Assembly: GCA_963677595.1 (NCBI GenBank)
Contig: OY782041.1
Coordinates: 128,001 to 192,000 of the forward strand
Direction of reading: 5' to 3'
Length of the DNA: 64,000 nt
Source of the DNA: Spirochaetia bacterium
GTDB taxonomy: Bacteria; Spirochaetota; Spirochaetia; CAKZLE01
Shown: positions 15,305 to 22,807 of the stretch, in pieces
How the letters are laid out: every line of letters starts with the position of its first letter
How positions within the stretch are numbered: the first letter of the stretch is position 1
Translations under genes and position numbers: made by a program
The notes under the pieces: generated by a model
The model's database searches: none
Seen by the model: only the letters and a program-made list of their open reading frames with translations
What the model was told of the DNA's origin: nothing

Positions 15305-16690
15305 ATGCAGAGACGGATTGCACAGCTGGTGAATGCGGACCCGACCGACGAGACGTTGGAAGTCGAGGGCTGGGTGCGAACGAAACGTGATTCAAAGAAC
15401 TTCTGTTTCTTCGAACTGAACGACGGATCCTGCCTGAAGAACCTTCAGGTGATCCTTGACAAGACTACCTCAGAACTCTCCGAAGTCATAACCCATATTA
15501 CGACGGGGGCGAGCGTCACCTTCTCCGGGAGACTCGTGGAATCCCCGGGGAAAAACCAGAAAGTCGAGCTACAGGCTTCCGGGGTGGTCCTCCACGGAGA
15601 AGCCCCCGCGGATACCTACCCCCTGCAGAAGAAGCGGCACTCACTCGAGTTCCTTAGGGAGATCGCCCACCTGCGGCCGAGAACCAACACGATCAGCGCC
15701 GTTGCCCGGGTACGGAATGCCTTGAGCTATGCGATACACTCCTACTTCCAGGAGCAGGGGTTCATCTATGTCCATACCCCGATCATCTCCGCCTCCGACT
15801 GCGAGGGCGCAGGCGAGATGTTCCAGGTGACCACCCTTCCCCTGGATGGGATCCCCATAGAGGACGGGCTCATCGACTACTCCAAAGACTTCTTCGGGAA
15901 ACCGGCGAACCTCACGGTGAGCGGCCAGCTGGAAGCCGAGATCTACGCACTCGCGATGAAGAACGTCTACACCTTCGGACCTACCTTCCGTGCCGAGAAC
16001 TCGAACACTGCCCGTCACCTTGCCGAGTTCTGGATGATCGAGCCGGAGATGGCATTCTGCACCCTCGAAGGAGACATGGCTGTGGCTGAGGAGTTCCTCA
16101 AGTACATCTTCACCTATGTGCTCGACCATTGTGCCGAGGATATGGCGTTCTTCAACCAGTGGGTACAGAAGGGAGTCGCAGACTCGCTTCGAGAGGTGAT
16201 CGAGAAGCCGTTCGTCCACCTGACCTATACTGATGCGGTGAAGGAGCTGGAAGCAGCAAAAAAGGATTTCGAGTTCCCGATCTCCTGGGGGGCGGACCTC
16301 CAGTCGGAACATGAGAAGTACCTCACCGAGGAGGTCTGCAAGGCTCCTGTCATCGTGACCGACTACCCGAAGGAGATCAAGGCTTTCTACATGAAGCTCA
16401 ATGACGATGGGAAGACCGTACGTGCCATGGACGTCCTCGTACCGCGACTCGGTGAGATCATCGGGGGTAGTGAACGAGAGGCACGCTACGATGTGCTCCT
16501 GCAGCGCCTCGACGAGCTCGGGCTCGAGAAGAAGGACTACTGGTGGTACCTGGACCTGCGAAGGTACGGGTCGGTCCCGCATGCAGGCTTCGGGCTGGGC
16601 TTTGACCGGGTAGTCCAGTACGTCACCGGCATGCAGAACATCAGGGATGTCATCCCCTTCCCGAGGACTGTCCATAACGCTGAGTTCTAG
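15305..16690 (+). CDS. asnS: Asparagine--tRNA ligase
   Basis: [57 protein letters not shown]. Confidence 0.98.
16584..16690 (+). repeat. Copy 1 of a 107-bp direct repeat of the asnS 3' end (att-like)
   Basis: Matches 18933-19039 at 103 of 107 positions. Confidence 0.95.
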
Positions 16691-17134
16691 CATTGGACCT
16701 GCTGGCATAGCCCTGAAGGCGTGAGGTGCTCAGCTGGAACAGACTCTGGATCACAGTAATACGGTCATTGCAGATCTGCCCGCCCGTCTGGATATCGTTG
16801 ACCGGCGGGCTGCCGCAAAGGCTCTATGAGCCTTTGCCTCTCCTAACGAGAGATTCTCCTCTCTACCTCCGATTGAAGAGCTTGAAGACTCCCAATGTAA
16901 TGAAGCCGTATCACAACCGCCCCCCCCAACCTGCGGGGTGCATAATGAGCGTACCTATACCTCAATGTTAATATTTTTGCAGGATACTTTTCACTTGAGA
17001 ATCAGAAACAATTTCGCTGCCTTTCGGAGCTACTTTTCGCTCTCTTTGGGAAGAACCTTCTTTCATAGAGGTTCTTAACAGTTTTATAGCTTTACTACTG
17101 CGTACGATAATATCACGAGAAAAGTAGTATGACT

Positions 17135-17385
17135 GTAGTTGAGAAGTCATAGATGCTATCCTATTCTTGACGGAGAATGGGAACCGGTGATCGTGTAATA
17201 CGTTTTTGTGATGGATGCTGGACTGCCAGACATACCTCAAGAGAAAAGATACACTGACCGGTCATCGAAGACTACTTGGAGACTTCCCGGGGAATTCTCC
17301 CCGGGAATGATCTCAATAATAAAAATGAAGGACATCTACGCACTTCCTGTCATAAAGCTTCCCAACTATCCGTTAATTTAATTTT
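17135..17385 (+). ncRNA. Candidate bridge RNA/seekRNA in the IS110 left non-coding end
   Basis: ~270-nt non-coding left end with hairpins (17159-17182; perfect 10-bp stem 17284-17307) and short segments matching the junctions; boundaries approximate. Confidence 0.6.
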
Positions 17386-17398
17386 TGAGGAGGCTGCC

Positions 17399-18568
17399 AT
17401 GATAGACAGACCTTTACGATTGACGGCAACCAGGATCATCGGCTTGGATCTTTCCAAGAAGACTCTGGTTGGGTGTATGCTGCTAGAAGAAGAAGGGTTC
17501 ATGAAGAACCACTTCTTCGACGAGAAGATGAATGCTCAAGGACGTCAGCGACTCGCTGAACGGTTCAAAGCAGGAGATGCGATCTTCATGGAGGGAGGGA
17601 CCTCTTCCTTCAACCTCGCACGGTATCTGCTGAAGCACACCGAAGCAGACGTGTATGTACTCAACCCTATGAAACTGCATATCATCTTCGAGTCGATCTG
17701 CAAGTCAGATCGGCAAGATGCTGCAAAATTGGCTAAGTATGCACGGGATGCCCACCCTGAGAACTGGGTACTGGTTCCCATCCCGACTGAACAGGAATCT
17801 GCTGAGCGCTCAGTAGTCAAGCTTCACATCGCCTATTCTCAGTATCGTACGAAGGTCATCAACAAGCTTCATGCGGTATTCACAGGAATGGGGTTCCCTG
17901 ACCTGAAGAAATCGGATCTGAAGGATCCTCGCAAGCGACGGGACTGGGTGGAGACCCTGCTCGCCGAGGAGATAGCTCTATTCAGTGCAGGGCTCCTGCT
18001 CGAAGAGCTTGAATCATTGGAGTCGCAGATGGAACGTATTCATGAGAAGCTCAAGGAGATCATTCTCGCTCACCCACGAGAAGCCATAGCATGGCTCTCG
18101 ATCCCTGGTATCGGAGACATCACGGCTGTAACGCTCATTGCCTTCCTCGGTAATGGAGACCGATTCTCTTCTGCTAACCAACTGAGGAACTATATCGGTC
18201 TCATCCCGAAGAAGGATCAATCCGGGACGGTCGATAAGCAGCTTGGGGTCTCTCGTCACGGGTGTATGCCGATCAGGAGGCACATCATGCAGGGAGCTTG
18301 GGGTGTCAAAAAGTTCAGACATGATTGTTCTCTTACTCGGTACTGGCAGCGTCTTGAAAGCCGACGGAAGCTTGGTCAGAAAGCATCAGTTGCCATTGCT
18401 AATAAGATGCTCTCTATCGGATTCGCCCTGCTGAAGAACGGTGACATCTATCGGATGCCTGACGGGGAACAGTATCTGTTGAAGAAGCTGCATTACTATA
18501 AACTTGAAGCTCTCGTCGGAACCCGATCCTGGCAGATTAATTCCGATAAGAGCTCCATAACCAGCTAA
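17399..18568 (+). CDS. IS110-family transposase/recombinase
   Basis: DEDD RuvC-like residues (IGLDLSK, FMEGG, KSDRQDA), SIPGIG, GLIPKKDQSG (catalytic Ser), VAIANK; GAGGAGG SD. Confidence 0.95.
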   Translation: MIDRPLRLTATRIIGLDLSKKTLVGCMLLEEEGFMKNHFFDEKMNAQGRQRLAERFKAGDAIFMEGGTSSFNLARYLLKHTEADVYVLNPMKLHIIFESICKSDRQDAAKLAKYARDAHPENWVLVPIPTEQESAERSVVKLHIAYSQYRTKVINKLHAVFTGMGFPDLKKSDLKDPRKRRDWVETLLAEEIALFSAGLLLEELESLESQMERIHEKLKEIILAHPREAIAWLSIPGIGDITAVTLIAFLGNGDRFSSANQLRNYIGLIPKKDQSGTVDKQLGVSRHGCMPIRRHIMQGAWGVKKFRHDCSLTRYWQRLESRRKLGQKASVAIANKMLSIGFALLKNGDIYRMPDGEQYLLKKLHYYKLEALVGTRSWQINSDKSSITS

Positions 18569-18752
18569 AGCCTTCCTAACGGTTTTAGCCTATCACTAAC
18601 CACCTCCCCACGCAAGTCCTTATTCTTAAGGTCTCGGAGAATTGTGTCTATTTGAATTGCTAAAATTTTCTTGTTTATACCTCTTGACATCTACAGACAA
18701 ATAAATGATGTAGTTGCCATTGTTATACCTCCCATAAAAAGATCGTAATTAA

Positions 18753-18781
18753 AATATATGATAGCCATTGCATGGTGTCAA
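18753..18781 (-). promoter_or_regulatory. Sigma70 promoter of the interrupted small gene
   Basis: TTGACA-17 bp-TATATT, with a CCAT-nnn-ATGG inverted repeat in the spacer. Confidence 0.7.
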
Positions 18782-18932
18782 TTGGATATTCGTTCTCCAA
18801 TAACACCGGTGTCTCGCAAGTTTCAGCACCACCGGGATCAGGGAGATTCCAGCACATGAACAGTACTCTTTGTTTCTTTTATATTGAGTTCTCACAGCAA
18901 TCAATTTACGTATGAGAATCTCAAAGAGTAAC

Positions 18933-19039
18933 CAGGCTTCGGGCTGGGCTTCGACCGTGTCGTCCAGTACGTCACCGGCATGCAGAACATCAGGGACGTC
19001 ATCCCCTTCCCGAGGACTGTCCATAACGCTGAGTTCTAG
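18933..19039 (+). repeat. Copy 2 of the asnS 3'-end repeat (displaced gene end)
   Basis: Encodes [34 protein letters not shown]; 4 differences from copy 1, all synonymous. Confidence 0.95.
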
Positions 19040-19061
19040 TAGACGGCGGAGTCCAGTAAAT

Positions 19062-19283
19062 ATAACGAGAGGACAGCATGGGTATCTGGTTCCTCCTCTT
19101 CCTCTGCTGCCATCCCCTTCTCCCCGGACTGTTCGACCAGCCCGGTATCAATGATCACCTGGCAGCATCAGCCGCCAGGTTCCTTATTCTTCTTACCACC
19201 TGTGGGAGGGAAGCAGGCATCTCCTTTACCTCCTGACACCTGCCGTCCTCCCGTTCATGGACTTTCTAACCATTCCTATCCTT
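19062..19283 (-). ncRNA. Conserved structured non-coding element downstream of LuxR-1 (copy 1 of 3)
   Basis: Three hairpins whose mismatches are G-U pairs on the minus strand; 12 GGA motifs. Confidence 0.55.
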
Positions 19284-19934
19284 CTAGAGGGTGGTCAGCC
19301 CCATACGCAGTGCGTACTTGGTGAGTCCTGCGATCGAGTGCACATCCAGCTTGGACTGGATCTTCTTCCGGTGGACATCTACCGTGCTCACCGAGATGTC
19401 CAACTTGAAGGATATCTCCTTCGAGGTCATGCCCCGACTGAGGAACTGCAGAACCTCCCGTTCTCGCCGGGTGAGCGGGACCGTCGGGAACCTCTGATTC
19501 CCTGCTTTGTAGATCCGTTCTTCCGCGACGTAGGACGGCAGATACACCGCTCCCTCGAACTGCGCCAGCAGCGCCTGCTCGAACTCCTTGAACGATGCCT
19601 TCTCGAAGAGGAATCCGTTGATTCCATGATCATGGTACATGTCGATCATCATCTCATGATGCTCCTCAATGAGGATCATCGTGCGGATCGCGCACCCGGA
19701 GATGGGGCCGTCCTCCTTCCCCAGCAGCTTAAGAAACTGCTTACATCGTGATGCGGTCTCGAGGAGCGCTGAGGATATGATGATGATGGCAGACTGTACA
19801 TTGAGCTGGCTTTCAGCCAATGCATCCAGATCTTCATAGTAGGCGACAACCTGGAATTCTCCAGATTCTTTGATGAGCCTGAACAGCCCTTCACTAAGCA
19901 GTGACCTGCTCTTTATAAAGATAATGTTTTTCAT
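19284..19934 (-). CDS. LuxR/NarL-family regulator with degenerate receiver domain (paralog 1)
   Basis: LTRREREVL...GMTSKEIS.KLDISVSTVDVHRKKIQSKL HTH; receiver-like N-terminus lacking the Asp residues. Confidence 0.9.
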   Translation of the reverse strand: MKNIIFIKSRSLLSEGLFRLIKESGEFQVVAYYEDLDALAESQLNVQSAIIIISSALLETASRCKQFLKLLGKEDGPISGCAIRTMILIEEHHEMMIDMYHDHGINGFLFEKASFKEFEQALLAQFEGAVYLPSYVAEERIYKAGNQRFPTVPLTRREREVLQFLSRGMTSKEISFKLDISVSTVDVHRKKIQSKLDVHSIAGLTKYALRMGLTTL

Positions 19935-20006
19935 ATTAGTATTAACCTTTTATTTGTTTGATTTGATTTAAAAATTCTGATCGAATCTTTGTTTTTTTAG
20001 GTTCAT

Positions 20007-20222
20007 CGGGAAAACAGCGGGTGTATCTTATTCCTCCTCATCCTATGCTGCCATCCCTTCCCTCCGAGCTGGTCGACCAGCCCGGTATCAATGATCACCC
20101 GGCGGCATCAGCCGCCAGGTCCCATATTCTTCTTGCCACCTGTGGGAGGGAGCAGGTATCTCCTTTACCTCCTGACACCTGCTGTCCTCCCGTTCATGGA
20201 TTTTCGAACAATTCCTATTCTT
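20007..20222 (-). ncRNA. Conserved structured non-coding element downstream of LuxR-2 (copy 2 of 3)
   Basis: Clear alignment to 19062-19283 with the stems preserved. Confidence 0.55.
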
Positions 20223-20876
20223 CTAGAGTGTGGCCAGTCCCATGCGCAGTGCGTACATGGTGAGTCCTGCGATCGAGTGAACATCCAGCCTGGACTGGAG
20301 CTTCTTCCGGCAGTTAATGATCGAGGCCTCCGAGAGGTTCAGCTTGGAACCAATCTCCCTCGAGGTCTTGCCCAGGCTGAGGAGCCGCAGCACCTCCTGT
20401 TCTCGCTCGGTGAGCGGGACCATCGGGAACCTCCGGGGTCCTGCTTTGTAGATCCGTTCTTCCGCGACGTAGGACGGTAGGTATACCGCTCCCTCGAACT
20501 GTGCCCGCAGCGCCTGCTCGAACTCCGTGAACGAGACCTTCTCGAAGAGGAATCCCTTGAATCCCTGGGCATGATACATGTCGATCATTACCTCATGCTG
20601 CTCCTTGATGAGGATCATCGTGCGGATCGAGCACCCGGTGATGGGGCTATCCTTCTTCCCCAGTATCTCAACATACTGCTCACAACGTGATACAGTATTG
20701 AGGATCCTTGAAGATATGATGATGTTGATCGGAGAGCGCACATTGTGCCGGCTTTCAGCGAATGCGTCCAGATCTTCATAGTGTGCGATCATCTGGAATT
20801 CTCCAGATGCTTCGAGGAGCCTGAGCAACCCATCACTGAGCAGTCCCCTGCTTTTTATTAAGATTATGTTTTTCAT
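20223..20876 (-). CDS. LuxR/NarL-family regulator with degenerate receiver domain (paralog 2)
   Basis: Paralog of the flanking genes; start MKNIILIKS at 20876 by alignment. Confidence 0.9.
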   Translation of the reverse strand: MKNIILIKSRGLLSDGLLRLLEASGEFQMIAHYEDLDAFAESRHNVRSPINIIISSRILNTVSRCEQYVEILGKKDSPITGCSIRTMILIKEQHEVMIDMYHAQGFKGFLFEKVSFTEFEQALRAQFEGAVYLPSYVAEERIYKAGPRRFPMVPLTEREQEVLRLLSLGKTSREIGSKLNLSEASIINCRKKLQSRLDVHSIAGLTMYALRMGLATL

Positions 20877-20985
20877 ACTGCTAGTAACCAAGTTTTTTTG
20901 TTGTATTTCCTTTTTTGTGTATCCATCAGGGAAACCCATTCCCCGGGGACTCCCTCCGGCTTCCACAGGTATGTGGCAGCCTTTC

Positions 20986-21206
20986 ATAACGGGAAGACAG
21001 CATGGGTATCTGGTTCCTCCTCGTCCCATGCTGCTATTCCCTTCTCTCCAGGCTGTTCGACCAGCCTGGTATCAATGATCACCTGGCGGCTTCAGCCGCC
21101 AGGTTCCGTATCCTGTTGCCGACTGTGGGAGGGAAGCAGGTATCTCTTTTACCTCCTGACACCTGCTGTCCTCCCGCTCGCGGACTTTCGAACAATTCCT
21201 TTTTCT
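20986..21206 (-). ncRNA. Conserved structured non-coding element downstream of LuxR-3 (copy 3 of 3)
   Basis: Aligns to copies 1 and 2; compensatory stem CCAGGCTG/CAGCCTGG. Confidence 0.55.
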
Positions 21207-21860
21207 CTAGAGTGAGGTCAGCCCCATGCGCAGTGCGTACTTGGTGAGTTCCGCAATCGTGTGCACGTCCAGCTTCGACTGGATCTTCTTCCGATGGACA
21301 TCGACCGTACTTACCGAGATGTCCAGCCTGGAAGATATCGTCCTTGAGGTCATGCCCTGGCTGAGGAACCGCAGTACCTCCTGTTCCCGCTGTGTGAGCG
21401 GGACCATCGGGAACCTCCGGGGCCCTGGTTTGTAGATCCGTTCTTCCGCGACATAAGACGGCAGATATACCGCTCCCTCGAACTGCGCCAGCAGCGCCTG
21501 CTCGAACTCCTTGAACGATGCCTTCTCAAAGAGGAACCCGTTGATTCCCTGTTCATGGTACATGTCGATCATCAACTCGTGATTCTCCTGGATCAGGATC
21601 ATCGTGCGGATAGAGCATCCGGCGAGGGGACCATCCTCCTTCTTCAGCATCTTGAGATACTGCTCACAACGTGATGCGGTATCGAGGATCGCTGAAGATA
21701 TGACGATGATCAGGGGAGAGCGCTCATTGTGCTGGGTTTCAGCCAACGAATCTAGATCTTCATGGTGTGCGACCATCTGGAATTCACCAGATGTCTGGAC
21801 TAGCTCAATTAGTCCCTCCGTTAGGAGTGACTTACTTTTAATTAATAAAAGTTTTTTCAT
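21207..21860 (-). CDS. LuxR/NarL-family regulator with degenerate receiver domain (paralog 3)
   Basis: LTQREQEVL...LDISVSTVDVHRKKIQSKL HTH. Confidence 0.9.
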   Translation of the reverse strand: MKKLLLIKSKSLLTEGLIELVQTSGEFQMVAHHEDLDSLAETQHNERSPLIIVISSAILDTASRCEQYLKMLKKEDGPLAGCSIRTMILIQENHELMIDMYHEQGINGFLFEKASFKEFEQALLAQFEGAVYLPSYVAEERIYKPGPRRFPMVPLTQREQEVLRFLSQGMTSRTISSRLDISVSTVDVHRKKIQSKLDVHTIAELTKYALRMGLTSL

Positions 21861-21922
21861 ACTACTTATAAACAGGTTTGAGGTGGATTTGATTTAAAAA
21901 AAAAGGGCAATTCTTTATTTTT

Positions 21923-22807
21923 TTATTTTTTTTTCGGATCCATCGGAATAAACCCTTCCCCGAGTACTTCCTGGGCACTGGTGATGATCATAAATGCGTC
22001 AGGATCTATCTTCCTCACGGTATTGGTCACCTGGGATATCTTCCTGTTCCGTACCACCATCATGATCATCCGCTTGTCATCGTTACGGTACATACCATGG
22101 GCATCCACGAAGGTTCCCCCATGACCCTGATCGAAGGTAAGGACTTTCTGCAGCTCCTCGTACCGGTCACTGATGATATAGGCCATCTTGGCGTAGTTCG
22201 CTCCGCTGGTCACCATATTGATGAACTGTCCTGTCGTGAAGAGGGTGATGACGGCGAAGAGTGCCTGTTCGATCGAGAACGAGAAGGCAGCTACCGCGAC
22301 GATCGCCCCATCCACGAGGTAGAGGGATGTCCCGAGCGGGAGCCTGCTGTAGTGGTTGATGACCTGCGCGATGATATCGGTCCCGCCGGTATTCGCCCCG
22401 CCCTTCATCGTGATTCCTATCCCCGCCCCGGTCAGGGTCCCGCCGAAGAGGGCAGCGAGCAGGATGTCCGTCCGGTCGCCCGTGGTGAGCAGGCCCTCAT
22501 AGCCGAGGATGTGTCCGAGGACGGTCACGGCAACGGACATCGCGATCGTCCCCCAGAGTGATTTGAGCCCGAACCGGTGGCCGAAGACCAGGATCCCGAG
22601 CCCGAAGATGGGTATGCTCAATGCGAGGATGACGATACCCGGGTCCCACCCGAACCAGTAGTAGGTGATGACCGACAGACCGCTCACCCCTCCCGCAGCT
22701 ATCTTGGCTGGGGCAAGGAACAGGACGAGGCCTGCAGCCGTGACGACCGACCCGATCGTGATCAGGATATAGTCACGCACCTTCCCGGCCAGTTCATCAC
22801 GCTTCAT
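21923..22807 (-). CDS. YitT-family membrane protein
   Basis: IAAGGVSG, GANTGGTDII, IDPDAFMII...EVLGEGF. Confidence 0.92.
   Translation of the reverse strand: MKRDELAGKVRDYILITIGSVVTAAGLVLFLAPAKIAAGGVSGLSVITYYWFGWDPGIVILALSIPIFGLGILVFGHRFGLKSLWGTIAMSVAVTVLGHILGYEGLLTTGDRTDILLAALFGGTLTGAGIGITMKGGANTGGTDIIAQVINHYSRLPLGTSLYLVDGAIVAVAAFSFSIEQALFAVITLFTTGQFINMVTSGANYAKMAYIISDRYEELQKVLTFDQGHGGTFVDAHGMYRNDDKRMIMMVVRNRKISQVTNTVRKIDPDAFMIITSAQEVLGEGFIPMDPKKK

Follow-up and report, generated by a model that had tools for sequence, protein, structure and literature searches.

An IS110-family element of a Spirochaetia bacterium with a predicted left-end bridge RNA and an apparent guide order opposite to that of IS621

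A bridge-recombinase model has been described for IS621 (PMC11208160, in its available portion), and an IS110-like element in the genome of a Spirochaetia bacterium raises the question of whether it moves in the same RNA-guided way and, if so, with which core, which guide order and which relatives. The window analyzed here is a stretch of 64,000 nucleotides (assembly GCA_963677595.1, contig OY782041.1, positions 128,001 to 192,000). A previous reading of these letters (the sequence-only reading) had proposed a fully delimitable, intact IS110 element with a circle-junction promoter.

The element, its copies and its recombinase

The main features of the element in the window are the following:

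17124..18703, + strand: IS110-family insertion sequence from left to right end (1580 bp; ends shared by five copies, right end 18703 set by guide register)
17399..18568, + strand: DEDD/serine recombinase, 389 aa (PF01548 and PF02371; NF033542, 200 bits; fold like IS621 and ISCro4)
17130..17146, + strand: left sub-terminal inverted repeat (13/17 match to the right repeat)
18683..18699, + strand: right sub-terminal inverted repeat, which holds the −35 hexamer TTGACA (18684-18689)
17125..17130, + strand: −10 hexamer TAGTAT of the predicted circle-junction promoter (TAnnnT at the same register in 32/32)

The genome carries five full copies of the element, the four others being 96-96.5% identical to the window copy; it also has a 5' fragment of 173 bp and a paralogue with 44% identity. 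In all five, GTAG (17124) directly follows AAA and the terminus reads CAAATAAA (18705); AAA borders both ends of every copy, and the five sets of flanks are unrelated to one another. The alignment of genomic copies that the sequence-only reading had put forward as a check thus returned the same ends throughout and, together with 32 complete relatives, bears out a delimitable and intact element. Copies 2/3 and copies 4/5 form two pairs with 0 coding differences at different sites, which supports recent movement of the family, as judged from the assembly. The window copy differs from copies 2-5 by 37-39 nucleotides and 11-13 amino acids in the coding sequence. No further copies were found at an E-value of 1e-20 in four other genomes searched (G518, G392, G199, and G001).

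Relatives were gathered by genome, metagenome and family-wide searches, which gave 63 candidate loci. Of these, 14 were duplicates and 17 were incomplete or could not be parsed; the 32 unique and complete elements that were kept include the five copies of the source genome and two elements whose left ends were reset by hand. They span 38-100% amino acid identity. Where the contigs of close relatives are named, they belong to Sphaerochaetaceae MAGs and to one Cloacimonadota bin, and a strong match was present in 40 of the 258 genomes of one related family. A literature search found no report of an IS110 bridge RNA in Spirochaetes.

The recombinase ORF matches PF01548 and PF02371 and scores 200 bits against NCBIfam NF033542 (cut-off 140). 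D17, E65, D104, D107, S275, and G276 are all present and invariant in an alignment of 41 proteins, which confirms that DEDD and the QSG serine have been kept, as previously noted. The AlphaFold model (mean pLDDT 89) has IS621 and ISCro4 as its best structural matches (E 2e-15 to 1e-13; TM 0.74-0.80 by target length), and the protein has the RuvC-like DEDD domain and the C-terminal Tnp domain with catalytic serine that are expected of the IS110 family.

Also in keeping with the family, the element has no terminal inverted repeats, a short core at both ends and no added target bases. Its imperfect sub-terminal repeats, which had been seen beforehand, match at 13 of 17 positions, a value reached by only 10 of 350,112 sampled random 17-mer pairs within the element; across the clade, the corresponding repeats show 11-15 matches of 16, 11 being the parser minimum. 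The left end (17124) and the spacing of 6 nt to the left repeat stand as first proposed, while the right end moves from 18702 to 18703 by guide register (see below), so that the right repeat lies 4 nt, and not 3 nt, from the end. The long 5' noncoding end was correctly recognized too: it exceeds the 3' end in 32/32 complete elements (medians 282 vs. 146), with about 275 and 140 nt in the window copy.

Joining the two ends would give TTGACA-17-TAGTAT, as the sequence-only reading had stated. In 32/32 complete elements, the joined ends place a TAnnnT 17 bases downstream of TTG(A/C)C; in this count the −35 belonged to the search pattern, the −10 did not, and 2 of the 32 left ends had been set by hand. 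The joined ends thus carry the sigma-70 promoter motif expected of the IS110 family. Genome-wide, TTGACA-N17-TAnnnT occurs 145 times, against 15-53 times for spacers of 15, 16, 18, 19, and 20. The right-end/left-end junction itself, proposed as a second check, is absent from the assembly, and no end-to-end joint was found in the contigs of runs X1-X3, a neutral outcome because contigs drop rare forms. Both the circle and its transcript are inferred from the known cycle of the family. The same TTGACA/TAGTAT pair recurs, as had been reported, at 37410-37382 (minus strand), ahead of a 484-aa ORF; we considered this site as a possible IS remnant and dropped it, as it precedes a host ORF. From 37410 to 37341 (minus strand), the promoter-like site is followed by a long palindrome and then by the 484-aa ORF, which we take to be sulfatase-like by its motif.

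Predicted bridge RNA and guide-to-flank covariation

Within the 5' end, the predicted RNA and its guides are arranged as follows:

17149..17330, + strand: predicted bridge RNA with a 5' hairpin, a target-binding loop and a donor-binding loop (fold z −5.3 for the 5' end; compensatory changes; model span)
17199..17207, + strand: 5' target guide, complementary to core and right flank (top strand)
17241..17247, + strand: 3' target guide, same letters as left flank and core
17248..17249, + strand: handshake-like dinucleotide (its first base follows the first base of the left end)
17271..17277, + strand: 5' donor guide, complementary to core and left end (covaries with left ends)
17318..17323, + strand: 3' donor guide, same letters as right end and core (L091 changes guide and end together)

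The 5' end of about 274 nt folds far better than shuffled sequences (z −5.3). In a consensus fold of 10 close relatives, 57 pairs are formed, 18 of them with compensatory changes, and the two unpaired sides of an internal loop, in which the target guides sit, are the only strongly variable segments. In a consensus of 26 diverse sequences, only 15 pairs survive and the donor hairpin is missing. A scan of positions 16600-19300 against Rfam returned six weak matches, all far below gathering scores. The RNA model found no notable match in ISHvo9, IS5075, ISShdy1, L111, L113, or four distant loci, nor in ISBth13 (E 0.079, minus strand).

Two further loci of the genome carry related sequences. The second IS110 element (L029, G000:C1:2615576-2616691; 44% identical) has a homologous RNA region (135 bits by the RNA model), and its right end was not recognized by our parsing. 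The 173-bp left-end fragment (G000:C1:253791-253963) keeps the 5' hairpin and a target loop, whose guides differ, but lacks a recombinase, and could be a product of decay or a free guide module.

The function of the variable segments was addressed by comparing guides with flanks in the 32 complete elements, using 20,000 permutations. In the AA-core register, the right flank agrees with the reverse-complemented 5' target guide at 2.78 of 6 positions (1.80 expected, p=5e-5), and in the best of five registers at 4.06 of 6 (3.05 expected, p=5e-5); the 3' target guide matches the left flank at 4.84 of 8 (3.17 by permutation, p=5e-5), and complementarity between the 5' donor guide and the left end reaches 5.31 of 8 (4.11 by permutation, p=5e-5). 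These p-values are unchanged across the 28 distinct guide pairs. Controls in which guides were read in the IS621 order gave no signal in the same 32 elements (p=0.88 and 0.53), and this order was rejected. The base that immediately follows the 3' target guide is the first base of the left end in 23/32 elements (10.2 expected), whereas the second target-loop handshake base and the donor-loop handshake showed no covariation in this set. Kinship inflates the donor-guide and handshake p-values, while target flanks are largely independent insertions. Noncoding ends with guides complementary to target and donor are a further property of the IS110 family, and this covariation supports, at the level of sequence comparison, a conserved structured RNA of the bridge type with two guide loops at 17149-17330.

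The guides end in UUU or AAA, the flanks are A-rich and the right flank starts with A in 22/32 elements, so that a protein preference for A-tracts might have picked the targets, with the likeness of guides and flanks reflecting only a shared base composition. We regard this scenario as very improbable and largely refuted by the permutation test: in per-position profiles, the excess of matches falls at variable, non-A positions, it persists in the 23 low-A guides (7 vs. 0.9 expected), and the opposite guide order gives no signal.

The register of the right flank varies between elements. At a threshold of at least 5/7, 10 of the 32 elements match in the expected register (1.4 expected by chance) and 8 at −1 (1.9 expected), two elements being counted at both 0 and −1; there are 2/32 at +1 and 1/32 at +2, and 13/32, including the window copy on strict matches, reach 5/7 at no register. 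The −1 shift is significant (p 0.0003), and with A-rich guides removed it is seen in 3/23 elements (p 0.04); the +1 and +2 shifts are not above chance (p 0.16 and 0.43). Slippage in the A-run, later changes in the homopolymer or the guide, and mis-joined assemblies are all possible causes. Several A-run-guide insertions (L035, L039, L093, L094, and copy 2) have right flanks beside G+C hairpins that look by eye like terminators on the opposite strand.

Core, insertion sites and two guide alleles

The core and the host gene at the insertion site of the window copy are as follows:

17122..17123, + strand: left copy of the predicted 2-nt core AA (AA in 31/32 complete relatives; register)
18704..18705, + strand: right copy of the predicted 2-nt core AA (five-copy ends; guide register)
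18706..18720, − strand: codons 1-5 of a small host ORF that the insertion interrupts (uninterrupted homologues in genomes G003 and G005)
16968..17123, − strand: remaining 51 codons and stop of the split ORF (67% identical to intact homologues)

The sequence-only reading had given an AAA core. Its A-rich character is retained here, its length is not. Three guide registers all place the overlap on the last two A's, and the core is therefore most likely the dinucleotide AA, on the evidence of sequence, with the right end at 18703. A 3-nt AAA core, or insertion with a short target duplication, would agree with the AAA that borders both ends of all five copies and with the 8/32 elements that fit best at the −1 register, which is equal to a 3-nt overlap. 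We consider it unlikely, given that three independent registers converge on AA, that 3/32 relatives carry G or C as the third base of the left AAA (2 of these 3 being matched by their own guide), and that empty sites have no added bases.

These empty sites concern the window copy, which interrupts a minus-strand ORF of 56 aa. Two of the four related genomes searched have this ORF intact, and both read through the insertion point without extra bases. Removal of the element with one AAA yields the longest open frame in four of the five copies, the fifth being uninformative; four of the five apparently disrupt genes. Among the genes hit are a pyridoxamine-phosphate-oxidase family gene and an AAA_24 gene; copy 5 (flank L027:2808-3011) interrupts, near its start, a small gene that weakly matches a HipA N-terminal domain (E 0.074). 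Two loose-end flanks from run X1 were not found in the genome and one is a mixed consensus, so neither was used as an additional site.

The 56-aa ORF has no match in Pfam or NCBIfam. It has a strong ribosome-binding site and a promoter-like site at 18781-18753 (11/12), and in locus L116 its intact homologue precedes a 145-aa ORF that, by eye, we take to encode a GNAT-type protein, an arrangement suggesting an antitoxin-like gene; no partner for it was found in the window. Farther downstream, a unit of about 940-984 bp that encodes a LuxR-family regulator on the minus strand is present three times in tandem (19062-21925).

The 5' ends of the window copy and of copies 2-5 differ almost only in the two target guides. 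On its own site, the 5' guide of the window copy makes six matches and two wobbles of nine positions, with one mismatch, and its 3' guide 8/9, whereas on the four other sites the same guides reach only 3-4 (5' guide) and 3-5 (3' guide) of 9. Conversely, the guide pair shared by copies 2-5 scores 6-8/9 (in one case only at a +1 shift) and 6-7/9 on their own sites and 4 and 4 of 9 on the window site. Sequence comparison thus makes the window copy an allele with different target guides, each allele lying at sites that fit its own guides. The 37-39 coding differences favor a separate lineage for this allele over a change of guides within the genome. Two alleles that are 96% alike thus coexist in one genome with different guides and matching sites, a natural experiment that lends itself to a clean swap test.

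The divergence of the window copy also bears on whether it still moves. It may be a passive or decaying copy of an RNA-guided element, an old arrival that possibly came with the surrounding 2.3-kb segment, only the lineage of copies 2-5 being mobile now. Its allele is found in one copy only, set apart from the identical pairs 2/3 and 4/5, and the copy lies inside a 2349-bp segment bracketed by a 107-bp duplication and missing from a contig of run X2. Yet its open frame, catalytic residues, both repeats, both hexamers and four guides are intact, and run X1 holds both flanks without differences; a passive window copy is conceivable, and we rather doubt it. Considered as a whole, the element is real, intact and recently mobile as a family, and it is likely RNA-guided, a variant layout of a known system. 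The copies and the covariation uphold these parts of the earlier proposal, whereas present activity, which it had called probable, is something that we infer.

The segment itself deserves mention. The duplicates (16584-16690 and 18933-19039; 107 bp, 96% identical) correspond to the 3' end of an asparaginyl-tRNA synthetase-like gene, and they bracket the 2349 bp that contain the insertion sequence and that the X2 contig skips; this segment appears to have been left by an integration with the end of that gene as attachment site.

Proposed mechanism and relation to known systems

Taken together, the data make it highly probable that the element moves as an RNA-guided recombinase, with a predicted bridge RNA in its left end whose guides match the target and the joined ends around a predicted AA core, in an order that is the reverse of that in IS621. 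The element would form a circle, its joined ends would create the TTGACA-17-TAGTAT promoter, and a single transcript would serve as bridge RNA and encode the recombinase. In the target loop, the 3' guide would read about 7 bases to the left of and including the core and the 5' guide about 7 to its right, the donor loop would read the joined ends in the same way, and strand exchange at AA would insert the element with no target bases gained or lost. As the two loops are reversed jointly, IS621 chemistry would apply with strand roles exchanged, the element's bottom strand taking the role of the IS621 top strand. Single-strand copy-out has been reported (10.64898/2026.08.31.748434; 10.1101/2025.10.25.684509; both in their available parts), from which we would predict copy-out of the bottom strand here. 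Guide positions and handshake bases are described in the available part of PMC13626964; the corresponding portions of 10.1101/2025.05.14.653916 and 10.64898/2026.08.14.744561 add nothing on guide order.

As far as the accessible text of PMC11187229 goes, IS1111-type RNAs have the top-strand complement first and usually lie downstream of the gene, IS110-type RNAs show the reverse, a few upstream-RNA exceptions such as ISMtsp17 exist, and natural retargeting occurs between relatives (ISEc11/ISXne4). The element resembles the IS1111 group (ISEc11, ISKpn4, ISPa11, IS5075; seekRNA) in its long sub-terminal repeats and junction promoter, in a top-strand complement located 5' of the bottom-strand match, in the GL-P----SG motif (GLIPKKDQSG in the element), and in natural retargeting between relatives. 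It differs in that its RNA is upstream, not downstream, of the gene; in its repeats, which at 13/17 are less perfect than the near-perfect repeats of about 11-13 bp typical of the group; in the extensions, which are not the 7 (or 6) bases on the left and 3 on the right of IS1111 elements; and in the length of its recombinase (389 vs. 330-350 aa), which does not group with IS5075/ISShdy1 in a small unrooted tree with long branches. At the junction, 12 bases (4+2+6), and not 9-10, separate the repeats, whose spacing had been called IS1111-like; the combination of long repeats with a long 5' end is borne out.

With IS621 and ISCro4 (IS622), the element shares the fold, DEDD and serine residues, a 2-nt core, a junction promoter and a handshake-like base and, with the IS621/ISEc21 type, a left-end RNA whose target loop precedes the donor loop. 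Identity is only about 22%, the guide order is reversed in both loops (the bottom-strand match is not 5' of the top-strand complement, as in the controls above), the core is AA (TT on the other strand) in place of CT, and the sub-terminal repeats are 17 bp long, where repeats of the IS621/ISEc21 type are absent or 2-3 bp. By sequence, the element departs from defining features of both the IS1111 and IS110 (IS621/ISEc21) subgroups and, having IS1111 order and long repeats with an upstream RNA, is assigned to the IS110 family in the broad sense alone. Between the two published groups, the location of the RNA and the order of the guides change together; this clade uncouples them, so guide polarity is not set by the location of the RNA.

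The underlying mechanism is already known; the element represents a variant layout in which the core is AA, and it clearly exemplifies the natural change of guides. A natural non-CT core matters for bridge-editing, engineered non-CT cores of IS621 being generally less efficient according to the available part of PMC11208160.

Among the named elements compared, the closest relative is ISLin1 of Leptospira interrogans (loci L105 and L107), with 28-29% identity and 157-160 bits against 65-103 bits for six other references. It is the sister group in a 19-row tree (support 88/86; long branches and no IS621-type row). By inspection, ISLin1 has sub-terminal repeats, a long 5' end, the same guide order and the junction TTGACA-17-TATGAT; where the left flank changes between L105 and L107, the 3' guide changes with it. 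The RNA model gives a rough and weak match to the ISLin1 target loop (E about 1e-3) and leaves the donor half unmatched. The differences are a shorter protein (357 vs. 389 aa), 10 instead of 12 junction bases between repeats and a core other than AA. On these sequence features, the layout is not unique, being common to catalogued ISLin1. A literature search by title or abstract start found no account of the ISLin1 RNA layout; Supplementary Table 5 of PMC11208160, a compilation of RNA positions for ISfinder elements, may already place its RNA in the left end.

Tentatively, and with more doubt than confidence, this Spirochaete clade and ISLin1 might make up a third type of IS110 element, with a bridge RNA in the left end, long sub-terminal repeats and IS1111 polarity, that preserves the step at which the RNA moved from one end to the other and that copies out the strand opposite to that of IS621. 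The A-run core might then allow the spacing of the two bound target guides to vary by one base in either direction, which would make this a slippage-tolerant TT/AA-core recombinase able to retarget inside one genome. Near one of the two ISLin1 copies (L105:250-430), another ISLin1 right end lies about 40 bases upstream, nearly in tandem, within repeated target sequence.
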